The translations under genes were made by a program, and so were the position numbers. A stretch of DNA of 64,000 bases from Escherichia coli. GTDB taxonomy: Bacteria > Pseudomonadota > Gammaproteobacteria > Enterobacterales > Enterobacteriaceae. Positions 1-28,860 of the stretch are shown in pieces. The notes under the pieces are model-generated. The model ran no database searches, was not told the origin of the DNA, and was given only the letters and a program-made list of their open reading frames with translations. The stretch is taken from assembly GCF_003790525.1 (NCBI RefSeq), contig NZ_CP033635.1; one strand, given 5' to 3'. Numbering within the stretch: the first letter of the stretch is position 1; the number at the start of each line of letters is the position of its first letter.

Positions 1-3265
<3,265 letters not shown>

Positions 3266-12335: not shown

Positions 12336-12358
12336 AAGATGCATTTAAAATGCATCTT
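12336..12358. promoter_or_regulatory. NsrR operator in the ytfE promoter
   Basis: AAGATGCATTT-A-AAATGCATCTT, a perfect 11-1-11 palindrome about 27 bp upstream of the ytfE ATG; matches the known NsrR box. Confidence 0.8.
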
Positions 12359-12384: not shown

Positions 12385-13047
12385 ATGGCTTATCGCGACC
12401 AACCTTTAGGTGAACTGGCGCTCTCTATTCCTCGCGCTTCGGCTCTGTTTCGTAAATATGATATGGATTACTGCTGTGGCGGTAAGCAGACGCTGGCGCG
12501 CGCGGCGGCACGTAAAGAACTGGATGTTGACGTCATTGAAGCCGAACTGGCAAAGCTTGCTGAACAACCGATTGAGAAAGACTGGCGTAGCGCCCCGCTG
12601 GCGGAAATCATCGACCACATTATTGTGCGCTATCACGATCGCCATCGCGAGCAGCTGCCGGAGCTGATCCTGCAAGCGACTAAAGTCGAGCGCGTTCACG
12701 CCGACAAACCAAGTGTGCCAAAAGGGCTGACAAAATACCTGACTATGCTGCATGAAGAGCTTTCCAGCCATATGATGAAAGAAGAGCAAATTCTCTTCCC
12801 GATGATCAAACAAGGCATGGGCAGCCAGGCAATGGGGCCAATCAGCGTAATGGAAAGCGAGCACGATGAAGCGGGCGAACTGCTGGAAGTGATCAAACAC
12901 ACCACCAATAACGTCACACCGCCGCCGGAAGCCTGCACCACCTGGAAAGCGATGTATAACGGCATTAATGAACTGATTGATGACCTGATGGAGCACATCA
13001 GTCTGGAAAACAATGTACTATTCCCGCGCGCGCTGGCGGGTGAGTGA
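12385..13047 (+). CDS. ytfE: Iron-sulfur cluster repair di-iron protein YtfE (RIC)
   Basis: 220-aa [36 protein letters not shown]...; hemerythrin-like motifs. Confidence 0.94.
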
Positions 13048-19088: not shown

Positions 19089-19727
19089 TTACCCACGGGC
19101 AGGGTTCACCAAAAGCCAGCTCAGGATGGTCTCTTTGATCACCCTGCGTCTGGCTTCCAAAGCCTCAGGTGAAACCATGCTAATGTGATAAACCATCCCC
19201 AGTGTGTACTGGTTTATTAAATAATATGCACCCAGTGCGGCGATATTAATGTTGATTTGTAAGGGATCAATATATTTCTTAAAGGTTTTCTGCCGCTGCC
19301 CTTCTTCTAATAATGAAGCCATTGACTGCAAATGTGCATGGTTAATTTCAGCGAGGCGTTTTGATTTTTTATAATGCACACCCTTACTTTGGTTTTCACT
19401 ATGGACAATTTTTAAAAACCACGGGTTATTGATGTAATAATCCCAAGTAAAATCAATTATTTTCTCGATCGCAATAACCGGCGAAAGCCCTGAAATGTCA
19501 AGCTCTCTCTCTTTTTCGCGAATATCGTTCCAGGTATATTCCAGTACTTCAATAAACAAATTTTCTTTATTACCAAAGTGGTGATAAACCGTCTGTTTAC
19601 TGCACCCTGCTGCCTTAACAATATTATCTACTCTGGCCCCTTCGTAACCATATTCGGCAAATTCATTAACCGCGCATAGCAGCAATTTTTCCTTCAGGTT
19701 TTGTGCGTGACTGGTATCAAGATACAT
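19089..19727 (-). CDS. TetR/AcrR-family transcriptional regulator (intact)
   Basis: Start placed at [58 protein letters not shown] (TetR HTH), with a GGGGA-type RBS upstream. Track ORF upstream Met codons lack an RBS. Divergent from the downstream operon. Confidence 0.8.
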
Positions 19728-19848
19728 TCCACTTCCCCACTTCCTCTTCGTGATGGCTATCATAACCGGATTTGATCTCAGCGACAGCAAAAAGGATAAA
19801 AGTCGTAATTTCATTGAGTTATCAAATTACCTGTGATCACTCTCGCAT

Positions 19849-19870
19849 ATCAACCAACTAGATGGTTGAT
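19849..19870. promoter_or_regulatory. Candidate TetR operator palindrome in the divergent promoter region
   Basis: ATCAACCA-ACTAGA-TGGTTGAT (8-bp perfect inverted arms) between the TetR start (19727) and the SDR start (19937). Confidence 0.4.
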
Positions 19871-19936
19871 CTTTTTACCTTCCAGTCGCAAGCTAATCAT
19901 CACTCAAGGAAACAATATTCAAAAGAGGGTCATTGT

Positions 19937-20728
19937 ATGAAATCCACTCGTCCTGTTGCTGTCATCACTGGTGCTGCACGTGGTATTGGAAAGGGTTGTG
20001 CGCTGGAACTTGCTCGTAGCGGGTTTAACCTGCTGATTAACGATCGCCCTGATGCCGACAGCGTAGAAAAACTGCATATCACACAACAAGAATGTATGGC
20101 AGAAGGCGTGGAGGTCATTTGCTTCCCTGCCGATGTTGGCGATCTCTCCCTGCATGAAGAGATGCTCGACGCGGCGCAAAACCAGTGGGGGCGTCTGGAC
20201 TGTCTGCTCAACAACGCAGGGATTTCAGTGAAAAAGCGCGGTGACCTCCTCGATCTCGAGCCAGACAGTTTCGACCAAAACATTGCCATCAATACCCGCG
20301 CGCCGTTCTTCCTCGCTCAGGCATTCAGTAAACGTCTGCTCGCACAGCCGAAACCGGAAGCGGAGCTGCCGCACCGCTCGATTATTTTTGTCAGTTCAAT
20401 CAACGCCATCATGCTGGCGATGAATCGCGGCGAATACACCATTGCCAAAACCGCCGTTTCTGCCGCTGCTCGTCTGTTTGCTGCTCGCCTTTGTAATGAA
20501 CAAATTGGCGTTTATGAAGTGCGTCCTGGTCTCATCAAAACCGATATGACTATTCCGGCAACGGCCTATTACGACGAACTGATTGCCAAAGGTCTGGTGC
20601 CGTGGGGACGTTGGGGTTATCCGGCTGATATTGCTTCCACTGTCCGCGCGATGGCGGAAGGTAAACTGATTTACACCTGTGGTCAGGCGGTCGCCATCGA
20701 CGGCGGCTTAAGTATGCCGCGCTTCTGA
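19937..20728 (+). CDS. Short-chain dehydrogenase/reductase (SDR) family oxidoreductase
   Basis: Start MKSTRPVAVITGAARGIGKG (TGxxxGxG) with AGAGGG RBS; NNAG and YxxxK (YTIAK) catalytic motifs. Confidence 0.85.
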   Translation: MKSTRPVAVITGAARGIGKGCALELARSGFNLLINDRPDADSVEKLHITQQECMAEGVEVICFPADVGDLSLHEEMLDAAQNQWGRLDCLLNNAGISVKKRGDLLDLEPDSFDQNIAINTRAPFFLAQAFSKRLLAQPKPEAELPHRSIIFVSSINAIMLAMNRGEYTIAKTAVSAAARLFAARLCNEQIGVYEVRPGLIKTDMTIPATAYYDELIAKGLVPWGRWGYPADIASTVRAMAEGKLIYTCGQAVAIDGGLSMPRF

Positions 20729-20737
20729 GGCTGAATC

Positions 20738-21580
20738 ATGAGAGATCTGTTACAACGCCCGGATTTATTCAGTATCAATACCGCGACACTGGGCTATAAA
20801 ACGCCGCTGCCCGCCATTATTGATGCCTGCGCCGCACGCGGTATTGGCGCCATTGCCCCCTGGCGCAGGGAGTTGCAGGGTGAAGATCTCCAGCAAATCG
20901 CCCGCCAGCTTGCTGCCAGTAACATAAACGTTTCCGGTTTGTGCCGTAGCACCTACTACACCGCACCGACGCTGGCGGAGCGCAAACTGGCGATTGACGA
21001 TAACCGCCGGGCGCTGGACGACGCCGCTGTACTGAACGCCGCCTGTTATATGCAGGTGGTTGGCGGTCTGCCAATGGGAACAAAAGATCTGTACGAAGCG
21101 CGGGAACAGGTGAAACAAGGGATTCGCCAGTTGCTGCCACATTCGAAAGATGTCGGTGTGCCAATTGCACTGGAGCCACTGCACCCGATGACTGCTGCCG
21201 ATCGTTCTTGTCTGTGCACGTTACGTCAGGCGCTGGACTGGTGTGATGAACTCGATCCCGATGGCGAATTTGGCCTCGGCGTGGCGGTAGATGTCTACCA
21301 TGTCTGGTGGGATCCGGATCTCGTCAGTCAGATCCTGCGTGCCGGAAAACGCATCCTCGCGTTTCATGTTTCCGACTGGTTAGTGCCGACCACCGATCTG
21401 GTCAATGACCGTGGAATGCCGGGAGATGGTGTCATCAATATTCCGTCAATTCGTCGGCTGGTTGAAAACGCCGGATTTAATGGCGCTATTGAACTGGAAA
21501 TATTCTCACCGTATTGGTGGCAGCAAGATATTGACAGCACACTGGATATTAGCGTCGATCGCATCGCGCATTATTGCTAA
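20738..21580 (+). CDS. Sugar-phosphate isomerase/epimerase-like protein (xylose-isomerase-type TIM barrel)
   Basis: 280-aa ORF; family call from overall similarity to TIM-barrel AP-endonuclease-2/xylose-isomerase-like proteins (IALEPLHP region); weaker than a motif-based call. Confidence 0.65.
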   Translation: MRDLLQRPDLFSINTATLGYKTPLPAIIDACAARGIGAIAPWRRELQGEDLQQIARQLAASNINVSGLCRSTYYTAPTLAERKLAIDDNRRALDDAAVLNAACYMQVVGGLPMGTKDLYEAREQVKQGIRQLLPHSKDVGVPIALEPLHPMTAADRSCLCTLRQALDWCDELDPDGEFGLGVAVDVYHVWWDPDLVSQILRAGKRILAFHVSDWLVPTTDLVNDRGMPGDGVINIPSIRRLVENAGFNGAIELEIFSPYWWQQDIDSTLDISVDRIAHYC

Positions 21581-21589
21581 GGAATAATC

Positions 21590-22366
21590 ATGAGTGACCA
21601 ACCCGTTCTGTTCAGCAGAGCGGCGGCTTCTTGCCGCCTGACATTGAACCGTGAAGATAAATGTCATGCTATTAATGAAGAAATGATCGAATCTCTCGAC
21701 CATTATTTAAATGAAATTGAAAACGACACCACATTACGATTAGTCGAATTAACGGCAACCGGCGATAAATTCTTTTGTGCAGGCGGCGATATTAAATCGT
21801 GGTCAGCCTATTCGCCATTAGATATGGGCAGAAAATGGATTAAACGCGGCAATGACGTTTTTAATCGCCTGCGCAATTTACCTCAATTAACGGTTGCGAA
21901 TCTCAACGGTCATACCATCGGCGGTGGTATTGAACTTGCCTTGTGCTGCGATATTCGTATTGCTCGCCCCAGCGCGAAATTCTCTAATCCGGAAGTAATG
22001 CTCGGCATGGTGCCTGGCTGGATGGGCATTGAACGCGTGCTTAATCAGGTCGGTCCGGTGGTCGGTCGCCAGATGCTGATGCTGGGTAAACGCCTGACGG
22101 CGCAGGAAGCTCAGGCGGCGAATTTAATTGATGAAGTGGTAGAAAAAGAACAGGTGGAAAGCTGGATGGCGAATCAGTTAGCGCAGCTGGAAAAATGTGG
22201 TCCGGTGGCGCTTGCACATATTAAGCAACTGATTCTGGCACTGGAAAATAAACATGCCGATTACCCGCACCAGCTACTGGCCGGATTAATGTCCGCCACT
22301 CAGGATTGCCAGCAGGCGACGCGCGCCTTTGCCGAAAAAAGTAGCGTGAGCTTCCATAATCAATAA
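21590..22366 (+). CDS. Enoyl-CoA hydratase/isomerase (crotonase) family protein
   Basis: 258-aa ORF; crotonase-fold motifs (FCAGGDIKSW, GHTIGGGIELALCCDIRIA). Confidence 0.85.
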   Translation: MSDQPVLFSRAAASCRLTLNREDKCHAINEEMIESLDHYLNEIENDTTLRLVELTATGDKFFCAGGDIKSWSAYSPLDMGRKWIKRGNDVFNRLRNLPQLTVANLNGHTIGGGIELALCCDIRIARPSAKFSNPEVMLGMVPGWMGIERVLNQVGPVVGRQMLMLGKRLTAQEAQAANLIDEVVEKEQVESWMANQLAQLEKCGPVALAHIKQLILALENKHADYPHQLLAGLMSATQDCQQATRAFAEKSSVSFHNQ

Positions 22367-22375
22367 GGAAATTGT

Positions 22376-23917
22376 ATGCGTAAGATAACAACCGCCGAGG
22401 CACTGGCGGCGCAAATTCAGGACGGTGCGACTATTGCTATTAGCGGTAACGGCGGCGGTATGGTGGAAGCCGACCATATTCTGGCTGCTATTGAAGCGCG
22501 TTTCCTGCAAACCGGACACCCGCGCGATCTGACATTAATCCACTCGCTGGGTATTGGCGATCGCGACAGCAAAGGCACTAACCGTTTTGCTCACGCCGAA
22601 ATGCTCAAACGCATTATTGCCGGACATTTTACCTGGTCGCCCAAGATGCAGGAACTGGTGAAAAGCAATGCTATTGAAGCCTACTGTTTCCCTGGTGGCG
22701 TGATTCAGGCGTTGCTACGGGAGATCGGTGCCGGACGTCCGGGGCTTTTTACCCACGTTGGGCTGGGATCGTTTGTTGATCCACGCAATGGCGGCGGTAA
22801 GTCGAATGAATGCACTACCACCGACCTGGTAGAACTGATTGAAATCGATGGTGAAACCAAACTTCGTTATCGCCCTTTCAAAGTGGATTACGCGATTTTG
22901 CGTGGCACTTATGCCGATCCTCGAGGCAACGTCAGCCTTGAAGAAGAAGCGATTGATATGGATAGCTATTCCATGGCGCTGGCAGCACACAACAGCGGCG
23001 GCAAAGTGTTCGTACAGGTACGCGATGTGCTGGAAGCTGGCGCGATTGAACCACGTCGGGTCAAATTACCGGGGATTCTGGTTGATGGCATCGTTGAGCA
23101 CCGCGAACAACCGCAAACCTATCTTGGTGGTTACGACCTGACCATTAGCGGTCAACATCGCCGTCTAAGTTCTAACGACGCTATTGAACTGGTTAGTCAT
23201 CCGGTGCGTCGCCTGATTGCCCGTCGGGCAGCACGGGAACTGGTGGCAGGCGCTTCAACCAACTTTGGCTTTGGTATTCCGGGCGGTATTCCAGGCGTAG
23301 CGCTGCGCGAAGGCGTGCCTTATCAAAGTTTGTGGCTGAGTGTAGAACAGGGTGTACATAACGGCATGATGCTGGATGATGCTCTGTTCGGCTGCGCCCG
23401 TAACGCCGATGCCATTATTCCATCACTCGATCAATTCGAATTCTACAGTGGCGGAGGGATCGATATCACCTTCCTCGGCATGGGAGAGATGGATCAGTAC
23501 GGTAACGTCAACGTCTCCCATCTCAATGGCAATCTGATTGGCCCCGGCGGATTTCTCGAAATTGCGCAAAACGCCCGTAAAGTGGTGTTCTGCGGCACGT
23601 TCGACGCCAAAGGTAGCAAGATTGATGTAACGCCAGATGGCTTGCATATCGCCCAGTCAGGTCAAATCCCTAAACTGGTTACCCAGGTGGAAAAAATCAC
23701 TTTTAGCGCCGCCTACGCACAGCAAAGTGGTCAGGAAGTGTTGTATATCACTGAACGTGCAGTATTCCAGTTAACGGCAGAAGGCGTTGAATTAATTGAA
23801 ATCGCACCAGGTGTGGAGATTGAGCGCGACATTCTGCCGTATATGGCCTTCCGTCCAATTATCAATCAGCCACGCCTGATGGAAAGTAGCCTGTTTACGC
23901 CGATGGAGGATGCATGA
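22376..23917 (+). CDS. Family-I CoA-transferase (acyl-CoA:acetate/3-ketoacid CoA-transferase, YdiF-like fused subunits)
   Basis: 513-aa ORF; C-terminal ITERAVFQLTAEGVELIEIAPGVEIERDILPYM closely resembles the YdiF C-terminus (...ITERAVFTL...LIEIAPGVD...) as I recall it. Confidence 0.8.
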   Translation: MRKITTAEALAAQIQDGATIAISGNGGGMVEADHILAAIEARFLQTGHPRDLTLIHSLGIGDRDSKGTNRFAHAEMLKRIIAGHFTWSPKMQELVKSNAIEAYCFPGGVIQALLREIGAGRPGLFTHVGLGSFVDPRNGGGKSNECTTTDLVELIEIDGETKLRYRPFKVDYAILRGTYADPRGNVSLEEEAIDMDSYSMALAAHNSGGKVFVQVRDVLEAGAIEPRRVKLPGILVDGIVEHREQPQTYLGGYDLTISGQHRRLSSNDAIELVSHPVRRLIARRAARELVAGASTNFGFGIPGGIPGVALREGVPYQSLWLSVEQGVHNGMMLDDALFGCARNADAIIPSLDQFEFYSGGGIDITFLGMGEMDQYGNVNVSHLNGNLIGPGGFLEIAQNARKVVFCGTFDAKGSKIDVTPDGLHIAQSGQIPKLVTQVEKITFSAAYAQQSGQEVLYITERAVFQLTAEGVELIEIAPGVEIERDILPYMAFRPIINQPRLMESSLFTPMEDA

Positions 23918-25995
23918 GCCAGCTTGATGACACCCTCCTTGATGCGCTCACACACGTCACTTTTCCAAAGGGTTTTGTGTCAGCAGAGCCAGCGTCAATT
24001 GTCACCGTTGAGGATGTTGATTACCCGATCTGGCAAGTTGATGCGCTGGTCGTTGGTAGCGGCGCAGCAGGATTACGTGCGGCAGTTGAACTTAAACGCC
24101 GCCAGCAAAATGTGCTGATCGCCACCGCCGGGTTATATATGGGGACATCGGCATGTTCTGGCTCTGATAAACAAACACTGTTTACCGCCGCTACCGCGGG
24201 CAACGGCGACAACTTCACCAAACTGGCAGAGGCACTGGCGAGCGGTGGGGCGATGGATCACGACACCGCTTATGTCGAAGCGGTAGGTTCTCTGCACACT
24301 CTAGGCGGGTTGCAATATCTTGGTCTGGAATTACCGGAAGATCGCTATGGCGCGATTCTTCGTTATCAAACCGACCATGACGAAGCCGGGCGTGCAACCT
24401 CGTGTGGGCCGCGTACCTCAAGGTTAATGGTGAAAGTGCTGCTGGAAGAAGTACAGCGTCTTGCTATCCCAATGTTGACCAGTGCAACAGTGATTAAACT
24501 GCTACATCAGCGTGACGAAAACGGCGAAGACCGCGTGGCGGGGGCAATCCTCGCGACCGGTCATCGCGCCCATAACCCATGGGGGCTGGCAATTGTGACT
24601 GCGCCCAATGTGGTACTGGCAACAGGAGGGCCTGGCGAGCTTTATCGCGACAGTGTGTATCCACACAAATGTTTCGGCTCACTGGGGCTGGCGCTGGAGG
24701 AAGGTCTGACGCTCACCAATCTGACCGAAAGCCAGTTTGGTATCGGCACAACGCGCAGCACCTTTCCGTGGAATTTGTCCGGGACTTATGTACAGGTGAT
24801 CCCATATATCTATTCCGTGGATGCCGGGGGTAACGAGTATAACTTCCTCGCGGATTACTATCGCACCACCCAGGAGCTGGCTTCAAACATTTTCCGTAAA
24901 GGCTATCAGTGGCCGTTCCACGCCACGCGGGTAATGGATTTTGGCTCCAGCTTGTTAGATATGGCAGTAGCGCAAGAGCAGCAATCAGGGCGTCAGGTAT
25001 TTATGGATTTCAATCGTAATCCTGAACCTGTGCCGGGTGACCTGCCGTTCTCATTAGATCGACTGGACGACGACGTTCGCGCGTATCTGGAAAATAACGA
25101 CGCTCTGGCACCATCGCCCATCGAACGACTGCAACGAATGAATCCGCTGTCTATCTCGCTGTATAAGATGCACGGTTACGATCTCACCACGCAGCCATTG
25201 CAGTTTGCCATGAATAATCAGCATATGAATGGCGGCATTGAAGTCGATATCTGGGGACAAACATCTCTGCCCGGTTGTTTTGCAGTGGGGGAAGTTGCTG
25301 GCACACACGGCGTCACCCGACCTGGCGGCGCGGCGTTGAATGCCGGGCAGGTTTTTGCTGTTCGTCTGGCACGTTTTATTGGTTGCACGCAAAAGCGGAA
25401 TATTGATGGAGATATAGCACAGCTGGCAGCTCCGGCACTGGCTTCTATAAGAGAGATCATTACTCAGGCGCACGATAACGGGACCGGGATGCCGTTGTCG
25501 GTTGTGAGAGAAAAAATTCAGGCACGAATGTCTGACCATGCGGGATTTATTTGCCATGCCGATAAAGTCCGACGTGCCACTCGTGATGCCCTGCTATTGA
25601 ACGAATTTGTGCAACGACATGGATTGGCAATCAAACATGTGGGTGAAGTTGCCGAGCTGTTTATGTGGCGGCATATGACGCTGACTTCTGCCGCCGTCTT
25701 AACTCAACTGACACATTATATTGATGCAGGTGGTGGTAGCCGGGGAGCACGTATTATTCTCGACAGGGATGGAAATTCTATTCCGCAAACACGAAATGGT
25801 TTTTGTGATGCCTGGCGCTTTCGTTCAGAGCGTACTGAGGATAAAAAAGATAAACTGCTTATTCATTATTGCAACAGTATCTTTCACGTCAGAGAAACAC
25901 CTGTCCGTGAGTTTCCCACTATCCGCGGCATTTGGTTTGAAAAAAACTGGCCTGGCTTTCTTAATGGGACAATTTACCAGCCACAGGATGAATGA
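23914..25995 (+). CDS. FAD-dependent oxidoreductase (fumarate-reductase/succinate-dehydrogenase flavoprotein-like)
   Basis: 693-aa ORF; N-terminal dinucleotide fold VDALVVGSGAAGLRAAVE; ATGA overlap with the upstream CoA-transferase stop. Confidence 0.75.
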   Translation: MSQLDDTLLDALTHVTFPKGFVSAEPASIVTVEDVDYPIWQVDALVVGSGAAGLRAAVELKRRQQNVLIATAGLYMGTSACSGSDKQTLFTAATAGNGDNFTKLAEALASGGAMDHDTAYVEAVGSLHTLGGLQYLGLELPEDRYGAILRYQTDHDEAGRATSCGPRTSRLMVKVLLEEVQRLAIPMLTSATVIKLLHQRDENGEDRVAGAILATGHRAHNPWGLAIVTAPNVVLATGGPGELYRDSVYPHKCFGSLGLALEEGLTLTNLTESQFGIGTTRSTFPWNLSGTYVQVIPYIYSVDAGGNEYNFLADYYRTTQELASNIFRKGYQWPFHATRVMDFGSSLLDMAVAQEQQSGRQVFMDFNRNPEPVPGDLPFSLDRLDDDVRAYLENNDALAPSPIERLQRMNPLSISLYKMHGYDLTTQPLQFAMNNQHMNGGIEVDIWGQTSLPGCFAVGEVAGTHGVTRPGGAALNAGQVFAVRLARFIGCTQKRNIDGDIAQLAAPALASIREIITQAHDNGTGMPLSVVREKIQARMSDHAGFICHADKVRRATRDALLLNEFVQRHGLAIKHVGEVAELFMWRHMTLTSAAVLTQLTHYIDAGGGSRGARIILDRDGNSIPQTRNGFCDAWRFRSERTEDKKDKLLIHYCNSIFHVRETPVREFPTIRGIWFEKNWPGFLNGTIYQPQDE

Positions 25996-26015
25996 TATTG
26001 CAAAGGTTAATCACT

Positions 26016-26492
26016 ATGCGAAATATAATTAGATCTATTAATGCTCTGCTTGCAACATTGAATATTACCATTTTGGCGATCATTGTGGCATGTGTGACAT
26101 GGCAAGTGGTAGCACGATTTATATTTAAAAGCCCCAGTATATTTACGGATGAACTCAGTCGTTTGCTTTTTATTTGCCTTGGCCTTTTTGGTGGTGCCTA
26201 TACCGCGGGGCAGAACCGGCATCTGGCGATTGATCTGCTTCCTATGATGCTGAAAGGAAAAGCCCGGCGTCATTTATTTTTGTGTATTCAGATTATCGTT
26301 ATTATCTTCTCTACCATCATTATGGTATATGGTGGTGGGCTATTAACGCTGGACACATTCGATTCAGGTCAAACCTCACCCGCTTTAGGCTGGCAGATGG
26401 GATATATCTATATGAGTATCCCGATTAGTGGTGTTCTTATTATTATATACACCATAGATATGGTTTTAACAGAACTTAAACAACCACTCTAA
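26016..26492 (+). CDS. TRAP transporter small permease (DctQ family)
   Basis: Four-TM small hydrophobic protein; start placed at MRNIIRSINALLATLNIT with AAGG RBS. An ATG at 25992 overlapping the upstream stop is an alternative. Confidence 0.78.
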   Translation: MRNIIRSINALLATLNITILAIIVACVTWQVVARFIFKSPSIFTDELSRLLFICLGLFGGAYTAGQNRHLAIDLLPMMLKGKARRHLFLCIQIIVIIFSTIIMVYGGGLLTLDTFDSGQTSPALGWQMGYIYMSIPISGVLIIIYTIDMVLTELKQPL

Positions 26493-26534
26493 AGATAATA
26501 AACAACAACCAACCATAGTAGGAATGGAGAAATT

Positions 26535-27836
26535 ATGGATTACTGGTTACCGATTATTGTGTTATTTGGTGCCTTCTTTTTTATGTTGGCATTAGGTGTA
26601 CCTATTGTTTATGCCATTGGTTTATCCACACTGGCATCAATTTCCACACAACTCGATTTCAACTCAGCATTGAGTGTGGTTTCCCAAAAGTTAGCCTCCG
26701 GGTTAGATAGCTTTACATTATTGGCAATTCCATTTTTTATTTTGTCTGGCAACATTATGAATCATGGAGGAATAGCGCGACGATTAATCAACTTTGCCAG
26801 AATTCTTGGCGGTCGACTGCCTGGCTCACTTGCTCACTGTAATATTCTTGCCAATATGCTGTTCGGGGCAATTTCTGGTTCAGCTGTTGCTTCGGCGGCT
26901 GCGATGGGCGGCGTCATGCATCCGCAACAGGTTAAAGAGGGCTACGACCCGGCATTCAGTACTGCGGTTAACGTTGCCTCTGCCCCGACGGGTTTGCTTA
27001 TTCCACCAAGTAATACGTTAATCGTCTATTCACTGGTCAGTGGTGGTACTTCTATTGCCGCACTGTTCCTGGCGGGTTATGTTCCGGGAATTTTGCTGGG
27101 TCTGGCACTGATGGTAATAGCCGGTATTATCGCGGTACGTCGCGGTTATCCAAAGCCAGAACGCCCGACTTTACGCCAGGCTGGCGTTGCGATATGGATG
27201 GCTATCCCCAGTATTTTCCTGATTATTTTAATTATGGGGGGTGTATTAAGTGGTATTTTTACCCCGACAGAGGCCTCCGCAATTGCAGTAATTTATACCC
27301 TTTTCCTTGCACTGGTTCTTTATCGTGAAATCTCAGTTAAAGATTTACCTAAAATATTTCTGGAATCCGTTATTACCACTGCAATTGTCTTGTTATTAAT
27401 TGGTTCTTCGATGGGAATGTCATGGGCGATGTCAAACGCTGACGTTCCCTTCCTGATTCTCGATTTGCTTAACACTATTTCTGACAACCCAATAATAATC
27501 CTGCTTATTATCAATATTATCCTGTTGATTATCGGCACTTTTATGGATATGACACCGGCGGTACTGATTTTTACGCCGATATTTTTACCGGTTGTCACCG
27601 AACTGGGCATGGACCCGATTCACTTTGGTATTGTCATGGTACTGAACATGTGTATCGGTATTTGTACTCCGCCTGTAGGCAGTGTGTTATTTGTCGGTTG
27701 TAGTGTATCTAAATTACCGATTAATAAAATTATCAAACCTATGCTGCCATTTTATGCCGTGATGGTATTGGTGCTGGCAATGGTGACCTATATTCCGCAA
27801 ATCAGTATGGCATTGCCAAGAGCACTGGGTTACTGA
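26535..27836 (+). CDS. TRAP transporter large permease (DctM family)
   Basis: 433-aa polytopic membrane protein MDYWLPIIVLFGAFFFMLALGVPIVYAIGL... typical of DctM. Confidence 0.88.
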   Translation: MDYWLPIIVLFGAFFFMLALGVPIVYAIGLSTLASISTQLDFNSALSVVSQKLASGLDSFTLLAIPFFILSGNIMNHGGIARRLINFARILGGRLPGSLAHCNILANMLFGAISGSAVASAAAMGGVMHPQQVKEGYDPAFSTAVNVASAPTGLLIPPSNTLIVYSLVSGGTSIAALFLAGYVPGILLGLALMVIAGIIAVRRGYPKPERPTLRQAGVAIWMAIPSIFLIILIMGGVLSGIFTPTEASAIAVIYTLFLALVLYREISVKDLPKIFLESVITTAIVLLLIGSSMGMSWAMSNADVPFLILDLLNTISDNPIIILLIINIILLIIGTFMDMTPAVLIFTPIFLPVVTELGMDPIHFGIVMVLNMCIGICTPPVGSVLFVGCSVSKLPINKIIKPMLPFYAVMVLVLAMVTYIPQISMALPRALGY

Positions 27837-27888
27837 TGCGCATTCACTGGCGGCACCTGCCGCCATATTTATTAGAAAAGGAACATCT

Positions 27889-28860
27889 ATGAAAATAAAA
27901 GTATCCGCTGGCATTATCGGTGCTGTTCTTATGTTATCCGCAAGCCAGTCCTGGGCAGTGACATTAAAACTGAGTCATAATCAGGATAAGTCTCATCCTG
28001 TTCATAAAGCGATGGAGTTCTTTGCGAAAAAGAGCAAAGAGTACTCTAACGGTGATATTACTATTCGTATTTATCCAAATGGAACATTGGGTACTCAACG
28101 AGAAACAATGGAGCTGATTCGTTCTGGCGCTATTCCACTGGTAAAAACCAACGCGGCAGAAATGGAAGCATTTGAAAATTCCTATAAATTATTTAGCCTG
28201 CCTTATTTGTTCCGCGATCGTGATCATTATTATCAGGTCATGCAGGGCGATATCGGGAGAAAAATCCTCGACTCAACGAAAAGCAAAGGTTATTTCGGGC
28301 TGACTTTTTATGATGGAGGCGCCCGCAGTTTCTACGGCAATAAACCAGTACTGAAACCAGACGATCTCAAAGGCATGAAAGTCCGTGTCCAGCCAAGTCC
28401 TGGCGCAGTTGAAATGATCAAAGTCATGGGCGGTAACCCGACGCCACTGGATTACGGCGAGTTGTATACAGCCTTACAGCAGGGTGTGGTCGATATGGCA
28501 GAAAACAGCGTGATGGCGCTGACCACCATGCGTCACGGTGAAGTGGCAAAATCCTTCAGCCTTGACGAACACACTATGGTTCCCGATGTGGTTCTGATGA
28601 GCAATGCTGCGTTTGATAAACTTAGCCCGGAAAATCAGGCAGTTATATTAAAAGCAGCTAAAGAATCAATGAGCTACATGAAAGACTTGTGGAGCGAGGA
28701 AGAGAAACAAGAATTTGCAAAACTGGATAAAATGGGCGTGAAAGTCTACCAGGTAGATAAAGCTCCGTTTATCGAGAAAGTACAGCCAATGTACGCAAAC
28801 TTCGCTAAGGACAACCCAGCCCTTGCCCCAATGCTGGCTGATATTCAGGCAGCTAAGTAA
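27889..28860 (+). CDS. TRAP transporter periplasmic solute-binding protein (DctP family)
   Basis: 323-aa ORF with signal peptide MKIKVSAGIIGAVLMLSASQSWA; DctP-type binding protein. Confidence 0.88.
   Translation: MKIKVSAGIIGAVLMLSASQSWAVTLKLSHNQDKSHPVHKAMEFFAKKSKEYSNGDITIRIYPNGTLGTQRETMELIRSGAIPLVKTNAAEMEAFENSYKLFSLPYLFRDRDHYYQVMQGDIGRKILDSTKSKGYFGLTFYDGGARSFYGNKPVLKPDDLKGMKVRVQPSPGAVEMIKVMGGNPTPLDYGELYTALQQGVVDMAENSVMALTTMRHGEVAKSFSLDEHTMVPDVVLMSNAAFDKLSPENQAVILKAAKESMSYMKDLWSEEEKQEFAKLDKMGVKVYQVDKAPFIEKVQPMYANFAKDNPALAPMLADIQAAK

Follow-up and report, generated by a model that had tools for sequence, protein, structure and literature searches.

The locus examined here raises the question of whether a short palindrome lying between ytfA, a gene for a TetR-family regulator, and a divergent catabolic and transport operon is the operator through which that regulator acts. 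To our knowledge, YtfA is among the few Escherichia coli TetR-family regulators without a known target, operator or ligand, and it has probably been ignored because ytfA is only a pseudogene in K-12. Our search of the literature returned no report of the operator, of a YtfA target, of YtfA binding, or of a footprint, transcription start or expression at this locus, and the only perturbation data for ytfA concern the K-12 pseudogene.

The ytfA locus and its variation among E. coli strains

The stretch of DNA that was analysed, 64,000 nucleotides in full and called the window below, has 100% identity to E. coli SMS-3-5 (NC_010498.1), and the locus lies in a strain-variable island with ytfB on one side and rplI on the other. 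The first-pass annotation of this DNA had described a 209-bp divergent region between a TetR gene and an SDR gene, and the RefSeq CDS bounds at 19727 (-) and 19937 (+) confirm it. On the far side of this spacer an operon of eight genes, from the SDR gene to the TRAP genes, runs divergently from ytfA:

19089..19727, minus strand: ytfA, TetR-family regulator, 212 aa (RefSeq annotation, Pfam)
19728-19936, between the divergent CDSs: ytfA-SDR spacer, 209 bp (RefSeq annotation)
19937-20728, plus strand: SDR, first gene of the operon (RefSeq, Pfam, NCBIfam)
20738-21580, plus strand: xylose-isomerase-like TIM barrel (RefSeq, Pfam, NCBIfam)
21590-22366, plus strand: enoyl-CoA hydratase (RefSeq, Pfam, NCBIfam)
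22376-23917, plus strand: fused CoA-transferase (RefSeq, Pfam, NCBIfam)
23914-25995, plus strand: fumarate-reductase-like flavoprotein, 693 aa (RefSeq, Pfam, NCBIfam)
25992..28860, plus strand: TRAP transporter genes DctQ, DctM and DctP (Pfam)
27889-28860, plus strand: TRAP binding protein gene (relatives with solved structures)

Judged by its domains, YtfA is a bona fide TetR protein, in which Pfam places a TetR_N HTH at residues 19-61 (E 1.7e-14) and a TetR_C_29 C-terminal ligand domain at residues 83-201 (E 1e-30). Its relatives in the PDB all belong to the TetR family, the nearest solved structure being the uncharacterised 3npi, and none of the curated NCBIfam equivalogs was matched by YtfA. 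The name ytfA for the TetR gene follows earlier work (PMC6790063, PMC4287617), and a survey of the TetR family records ytfA in some E. coli strains, SMS-3-5 among them (PMC6790063).

Searches of 5426 complete E. coli genomes found the locus in 3135-3158 of them (~58%), including Nissle 1917 and ETEC H10407, and it is missing from about 42%. In K-12 MG1655 (4424500-4429500) ytfA is an annotated 402-bp pseudogene, yjfZ (DUF2686) stands in place of the whole SDR-to-TRAP operon, and the palindrome is absent. A remnant resembling that of K-12, made up of TetR residues 86-210 and a 34-aa SDR fragment, is present in Escherichia sp. E1V33.

The locus is also mosaic among the strains that carry it. When SMS-3-5 is compared with the majority E. 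coli alleles, YtfA shows 83-84% amino acid identity and the spacer 82-85% nucleotide identity, and the SDR, TIM-barrel and hydratase proteins next to them reach 94-99%, which marks a mosaic boundary. Such a boundary points to recombination, or to divergent selection acting on the regulator, with an operator that stayed constant. The ytfA of the majority allele encodes 215 aa and overlaps the end of ytfB. Directly upstream of the ytfA start codon, at 19729-19744, the SMS-3-5 and 00-3076 alleles carry a tandem direct repeat of two copies of CCACTTCC, which reads GGAAGTGG GGAAGTGG on the coding strand and is Shine-Dalgarno-like; the majority alleles are missing this repeat.

Form, conservation and recurrence of the palindrome

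The perfect inverted repeat that had been read in the spacer, ATCAACCA-ACTAGA-TGGTTGAT at 19849..19870, matches the sequence exactly, with arms of 8 nt and a spacer of 6 nt (in full, ATCAACCAACTAGATGGTTGAT, 19849-19870). Its 8-6-8 form stands as read but is not the best description: the palindrome extends inward to an 11+11 repeat in which 10 of 11 pairs match, the central CTAG is itself palindromic, and the whole is better described as a 22-bp 10-2-10 element. At 22 bp, it has the size of a palindromic operator (about 15-30 bp) and lies next to the regulator gene.

19849..19870, no strand assigned: predicted YtfA operator, ATCAACCAAC-TA-GATGGTTGAT, 22 bp (conservation, motif beside YtfA homologues)

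The simplest alternative is that the palindrome is a functionless chance feature. The chance expectation for a perfect 8-nt inverted repeat with a spacer of 0-12 nt is ~0.04 per 209 bp (209 x 13 / 4^8); in favour of this alternative, such repeats are common, with ~20 distinct ones in the 64-kb window, so that the palindrome by itself is only suggestive. Two other palindromes of the window may be recorded here: a perfect 11-1-11 palindrome, AAGATGCATTT-A-AAATGCATCTT at 12336-12358, lies ~27-49 bp upstream of ytfE (12385-13047) and is presumably the NsrR operator known from the ytfE promoter, and a 17-nt perfect palindrome, CGACCTTGGCAAGGTCG, occurs in 3 copies (62904, 63015 and 63248) within ~350 bp.

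Recurrence of the palindrome in orthologous intergenic regions had been set beforehand as a check on the operator reading, and we found it conserved across 12 enterobacterial spacers. In the alignment of these 12 sequences, 19 of the 22 palindrome columns are invariant, compared with 67 of 209 (32%) over the whole spacer; the two longest stretches of invariant columns in the spacer, 19860-19871 and 19851-19858, both fall within the palindrome, and an equally conserved 22-column window arose in none of 100,000 column shuffles. Among seven E. coli alleles whose spacers are 82-100% identical to that of the window, both arms are invariant and the sole change is a T to C in the central spacer. A scan that started from the TetR gene, with one genome per species, located this operon also in E. 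whittamii, E. albertii, Klebsiella spallanzanii and Entomohabitans teleogrylli, and in each of them the palindrome shows 0-2 changes, at outer bases; those of E. albertii and K. spallanzanii are one-sided and affect the two outermost bases of the left arm. Across the alignment the palindrome tracks the start of the operon and not that of ytfA. The Entomohabitans spacer is 423 bp long, and there the distance from the palindrome to ytfA has grown from 121 to 337 bp and the distance to the SDR start is unchanged, which makes the palindrome part of the control region of the operon. Within E. coli it occurs as a single copy per genome in 3143 of the 5426 genomes, solely those having the locus.

An inverted repeat may also act in RNA, here as the hairpin of an intrinsic terminator or attenuator, followed by a U-run, in the leader transcript. 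A terminator scan does flag ATCAACCAACTAGATGGTTGAT followed by CTTTTTACCT, and the hairpin folds at -9 kcal/mol (z = -3.06 versus shuffles). However, only 3 of the 8 pairs of the stem are G-C, the T-run is missing in Entomohabitans (GATCCAGATTTAATC) and eroded in other alleles, and the one-sided arm changes of E. albertii and K. spallanzanii have no compensation on the other arm. What is kept in unrelated gene contexts without T-runs is the palindrome sequence itself, beyond its pairing. Moreover, no upstream gene reads into the palindrome, with transcription starting upstream of 19849 the CRP site described below would come to lie at or downstream of the start, and Rfam 15 covariance models gave no match at E <= 1 on either strand of 19650-20050. 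Folding and conservation, which revealed neither a G+C-rich stem nor a conserved U-run nor compensatory changes, lead us to reject the terminator, and a role in RNA is very improbable.

The palindrome accompanies relatives of the regulator well beyond the enterobacteria. YtfA homologues with 33-41% identity, all with TetR_N and TetR_C_29, are encoded in Alphaproteobacteria (Oceanibaculum, Belnapia, Tistrella, Ferrovibrio and several MAGs), where they flank genes for an NMT1/THI5-type binding protein and an ABC permease; a tblastn search with the operon proteins against these loci found none of them. Because the homologues lie beside an ABC transporter and not beside this operon, they are uninformative on the inducer. 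These genomes have 61-72% G+C, yet the loci contain AT-rich 22-mers at 1-5 mismatches from ATCAACCAAC-NN-GTTGGTTGAT, usually two of them, one just upstream of tetR and the other just downstream, before the permease gene. In several of the loci one of the two operators abuts the tetR start. Related loci gave 21 matches to the consensus in 121 kb, whereas control loci with unrelated TetR genes gave 4 in 339 kb, none of them below the limit of 5 mismatches. The half-sites follow the profile aTCAACCAAC, in which the CA of positions 7-8 is invariant in 34 of 34, and the predicted E. coli operator departs from the family consensus once, with GAT for GTT. In Oceanibaculum the downstream site starts within the -10 of a near-consensus TTGACA-17-TAACAT promoter, which is a classic place for a repressor.

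Next to this search by regulator, a search by motif was made in metagenomes, in which contigs were queried with TCAACCAACNNGTTGGTTGA and 82 were returned. A YtfA-family TetR (at least 120 aa aligned) is encoded on 37 of the 82, and on 32 of the 82 a TetR HTH starts no more than 800 bp from the motif; 20 of these 32 have the helix NKQL(I/V)Y, close to the SKQTVY of YtfA. A different TetR clade, with the helix HKATLYHY (GMHKATLYHYV.NKESI), is found on 18 other contigs, where in most cases a fixed 1.4-1.9 kb separates it from the motif, and a third, NNATLHHY (INNATL[IH]H[HY]), lies mostly at 85-160 bp and in one locus at 561 bp. The loci of the HKATLYHY clade have an exact palindrome, TCAACCAAC-NN-GTTGGTTGA. 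These neighbours identify the palindrome as a TetR-family operator type of which the YtfA clade is one user among others, and the presence of clades with different recognition helices beside the same motif means that the motif is not unique to YtfA-type proteins. For three YtfA relatives with a K-R instead of a K-Q helix we found no shared alternative palindrome, and in two of the three tetR lies inside an operon and its upstream region is coding; a correlation of recognition helix with operator (K-R versus K-Q) is suggestive only.

Both searches thus found the site conserved with the regulator, in orthologous as well as homologous loci, and this conservation near and far supports the first-pass proposal that the palindrome is a TetR operator. 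The exceptional conservation of the site, together with its cross-phylum recurrence next to TetR genes, argues strongly against chance and excludes it as an explanation; that the palindrome has no function is hardly credible. A less drastic alternative is that the site serves some regulator apart from YtfA, for example a global transcription factor or one encoded at an unlinked locus. The several TetR clades that accompany the motif in metagenomes, with their different recognition helices, speak for this, as the motif does not single out one binder. Against it, the site is present once per genome, solely with ytfA and the operon, and was lost with both in K-12; it co-occurs with YtfA-family genes in Gamma- and Alphaproteobacteria although the regulated genes differ; and the 64-kb window contains no further site at <=4 mismatches besides 19849-19870 itself (1 mismatch). 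We regard another binder as improbable.

The CRP site and the candidate promoters of the spacer

The same annotation had expected a simple ligand-derepressed switch, and on this point the locus proved different: a CRP site abuts the palindrome, and CRP was bound there in ETEC (PMC4287617). The site and the candidate promoter elements of the operon are as follows:

19832..19847, no strand assigned: CRP site TGTGA-TCACTC-TCGCA (consensus match, conservation, ETEC ChIP-seq)
19866..19871, plus strand: candidate -35 TTGATC of the putative operon promoter, inside the right operator arm (PWM scan, 12/12 invariant)
19889..19894, plus strand: candidate -10 CAAGCT of the putative operon promoter (conservation, PWM scan)

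The CRP site agrees with the consensus TGTGA-N6-TCACA at 9 of 10 half-site bases; both halves are conserved, the N6 between them is variable, and the outgroups have TCACA or TCACG, nearer the consensus. Its centre, at 19839.5, is 20 bp from the operator centre, with a 1-bp gap to the palindrome, in 12 of 12 sequences. A 16-mer, TGTGATCACTATCGCA, was reported from ETEC H10407 as the CRP ChIP-seq site 'ETEC_4557/ETEC_4558 (ytfA)' (PMC4287617). It is identical to the 16-mer of the allele class that H10407 carries, and on the RefSeq chromosome of that strain (NC_017633.1) it lies at 4941093-4941108, 1 bp from the palindrome. The published coordinate of the CRP peak is ~197 bp below this RefSeq position. 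Because the adjacent yjfY/rpsF entry is shifted alike (~191 bp) and the ChIP-seq motif search was limited to 50 bp around peak centres (PMC4287617), the mismatch amounts to a coordinate offset of about 190 bp. CRP occupies the ytfA-SDR spacer in vivo in ETEC H10407, according to published ChIP-seq of that strain, which is another than the strain of the window.

A simple sigma-70 consensus scan of the spacer found no promoter. The candidate -10 of the operon has the counterparts CATTTT in K. spallanzanii and CATCTT in Entomohabitans, with A2 and T6 invariant, and the stretch between -35 and -10 (19872-19888) is 17 nt long in 12 of 12 sequences and variable in sequence. The PWM score of this promoter, 5.35, is not above background (the median best random score being 5.98), and the operon promoter is therefore not callable from sequence scores alone. 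A low score would be normal for an activator-dependent promoter, and we place the promoter by geometry and conservation: the best-fitting one would start near 19901, which would centre CRP at -61.5 and let the operator span -52 to -31. The first-pass suggestion that the operator overlaps the operon promoter would hold in this arrangement, as judged from geometry only.

On the ytfA side one element was retained:

19759..19764, minus strand: candidate ytfA -10 TATGAT, putative and weak, with a start near 19752 (PWM score 7.38)

This candidate is conserved in Escherichia and K. spallanzanii and lies ~85 bp from the operator, and elsewhere in the spacer no second operator or half-site for autoregulation of ytfA was found at <=6 mismatches. 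The top PWM score (9.53) belonged to a leftward TTGATA-18-TAATTT with the left arm as -35, which was set aside, its -10 being unconserved in other alleles; a TTGATCT direct repeat at 19772 was likewise discarded as not conserved across the 12 sequences.

A proposed switch and its relation to known systems

Taken together, we consider it very likely that YtfA, the predicted TetR-family repressor encoded on the other side of the spacer, has its operator at 19849-19870. In the model that we infer, for the identity of the binder, the sign of regulation, the position of the promoter and the ligand alike, the operon would be transcribed from a class I CRP-dependent promoter, with CRP at -61.5, a -35 that falls within the right arm of the operator, and a weak -10. 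From its site at -52 to -31, YtfA would occlude the -35 and the DNA beside CRP, the docking place of the RNA polymerase alpha C-terminal domain, and in covering both it would keep the operon off even with cAMP-CRP present. A small molecule bound by the C-terminal domain would release YtfA, and expression would require inducer and catabolite derepression together.

As the likely ligand we would expect the acid that the TRAP system imports, plausibly a sugar acid, or else a CoA thioester formed along the pathway. Among solved structures, those nearest to the TRAP binding protein are 4X8R, 4N8Y, 4N91 and 4MHF (E 1e-59 to 1e-72), whose ligands are the hexuronates glucuronate or galacturonate (PMC11668362, PMC7660916); relatives that bind these acids make a sugar acid, or a CoA-thioester of the pathway, our best guess for the ligand. 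The enzymes of the operon (CoA-transferase, enoyl-CoA hydratase, SDR and flavoprotein) are CoA-dependent, unlike the classical Uxu/Uxa route for hexuronates.

The repressive sign is assumed by analogy, from the behaviour of the TetR family, whose members are overwhelmingly ligand-released repressors, and from the Oceanibaculum arrangement. The opposite sign, with YtfA an activator or a co-activator with CRP, has some room in the proposed promoter, which has a weak core and places the site between CRP and the -35, upstream of the -10, a position open to activators. This alternative is nevertheless quite unlikely: it goes against the family rule just given, the homologous Oceanibaculum site covers the -10 and the start of a near-consensus promoter, as a repressor site would, and the E. 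coli site overlaps the only plausible -35.

Repression by YtfA might also involve more than plain occlusion at a plain operator, although the joint reading, in which the site combines anti-activation, dual gating and an operator shared between clades, is doubtful. With a 1-bp gap to CRP and an invariant 20-bp spacing of centres, YtfA might, like CytR, work mainly as an anti-activator and block recruitment by CRP. Each palindrome arm contains an outward-facing, -35-like TTGAT(A/C) hexamer, and through these a single bound repressor could gate both divergent promoters. The 22-bp palindrome seems to be common to at least three TetR clades across phyla, which hints at a widely reused operator 'dialect' with specificity set elsewhere.

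As proposed, the system resembles a conventional TetR repressor-operator pair superimposed on a catabolic promoter under CRP control. The classical operators of the family are tetO, of 15 bp and bound by one dimer, and QacR IR1, of 28 bp and bound by two dimers, and the YtfA operator, at 22 bp (10-2-10), falls between them. As in these two systems, a divergently encoded regulator combines an N-terminal HTH with a C-terminal ligand domain, the palindromic operator lies in the shared spacer, where it would overlap core promoter elements, and release by ligand is expected; YtfA differs in its TetR_C_29 ligand domain and in its targets, a catabolic and TRAP operon instead of an efflux pump, and autoregulation is not evident for E. 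coli ytfA. Within E. coli the likeness is to RutR, whose operator is TTGACCAnnTGGTCAA: both are TetR-family regulators of a catabolic operon with a palindrome of the ACCA...TGGT type, and their HTHs show detectable similarity (E about 1e-6). The half-sites, however, are TCAACCA-N6-TGGTTGA for YtfA and are separated by N2 for RutR, YtfA scores 37 bits, far short of the 368 that the RutR NCBIfam model requires, and the C-terminal domain and the regulon are different. KstR-type TetR operators have the sequence TnnAACnnGTTnnA and share with the YtfA family consensus the centre AAC-NN-GTT (CCAAC-TG-GTTGG) and a pathway with CoA thioesters; the outer half-site sequence differs, and on one side of the E. 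coli site GTT is replaced by GAT.

The closest likeness in promoter layout is to lac, where CRP at -61.5 is combined with LacI and the main operator lies downstream at +11. Here, too, a CRP site, occupied in vivo in ETEC, would lie at -61.5 relative to the best-fitting promoter, the same control region includes a predicted site for a local repressor, and expression would require inducer and cAMP-CRP. In contrast to lac, the predicted YtfA site lies between CRP and the -10, with the 1-bp gap to the CRP site, a position that may also permit interference with CRP-dependent recruitment, that is, anti-activation.

What has very probably been pinned down is an ordinary bacterial switch, which leaves the concepts of gene regulation unchanged. 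For YtfA it is new in three respects: a predicted 22-bp operator, a likely regulon in the accessory 8-gene catabolic and TRAP operon, and CRP as co-regulator. For the wider TetR_C_29 clade, the consensus operator opens the way to regulon prediction in Alphaproteobacteria. The regulator and the substrate of the operon are now directly testable, for example with a ytfA-operator reporter as a sugar-acid biosensor.
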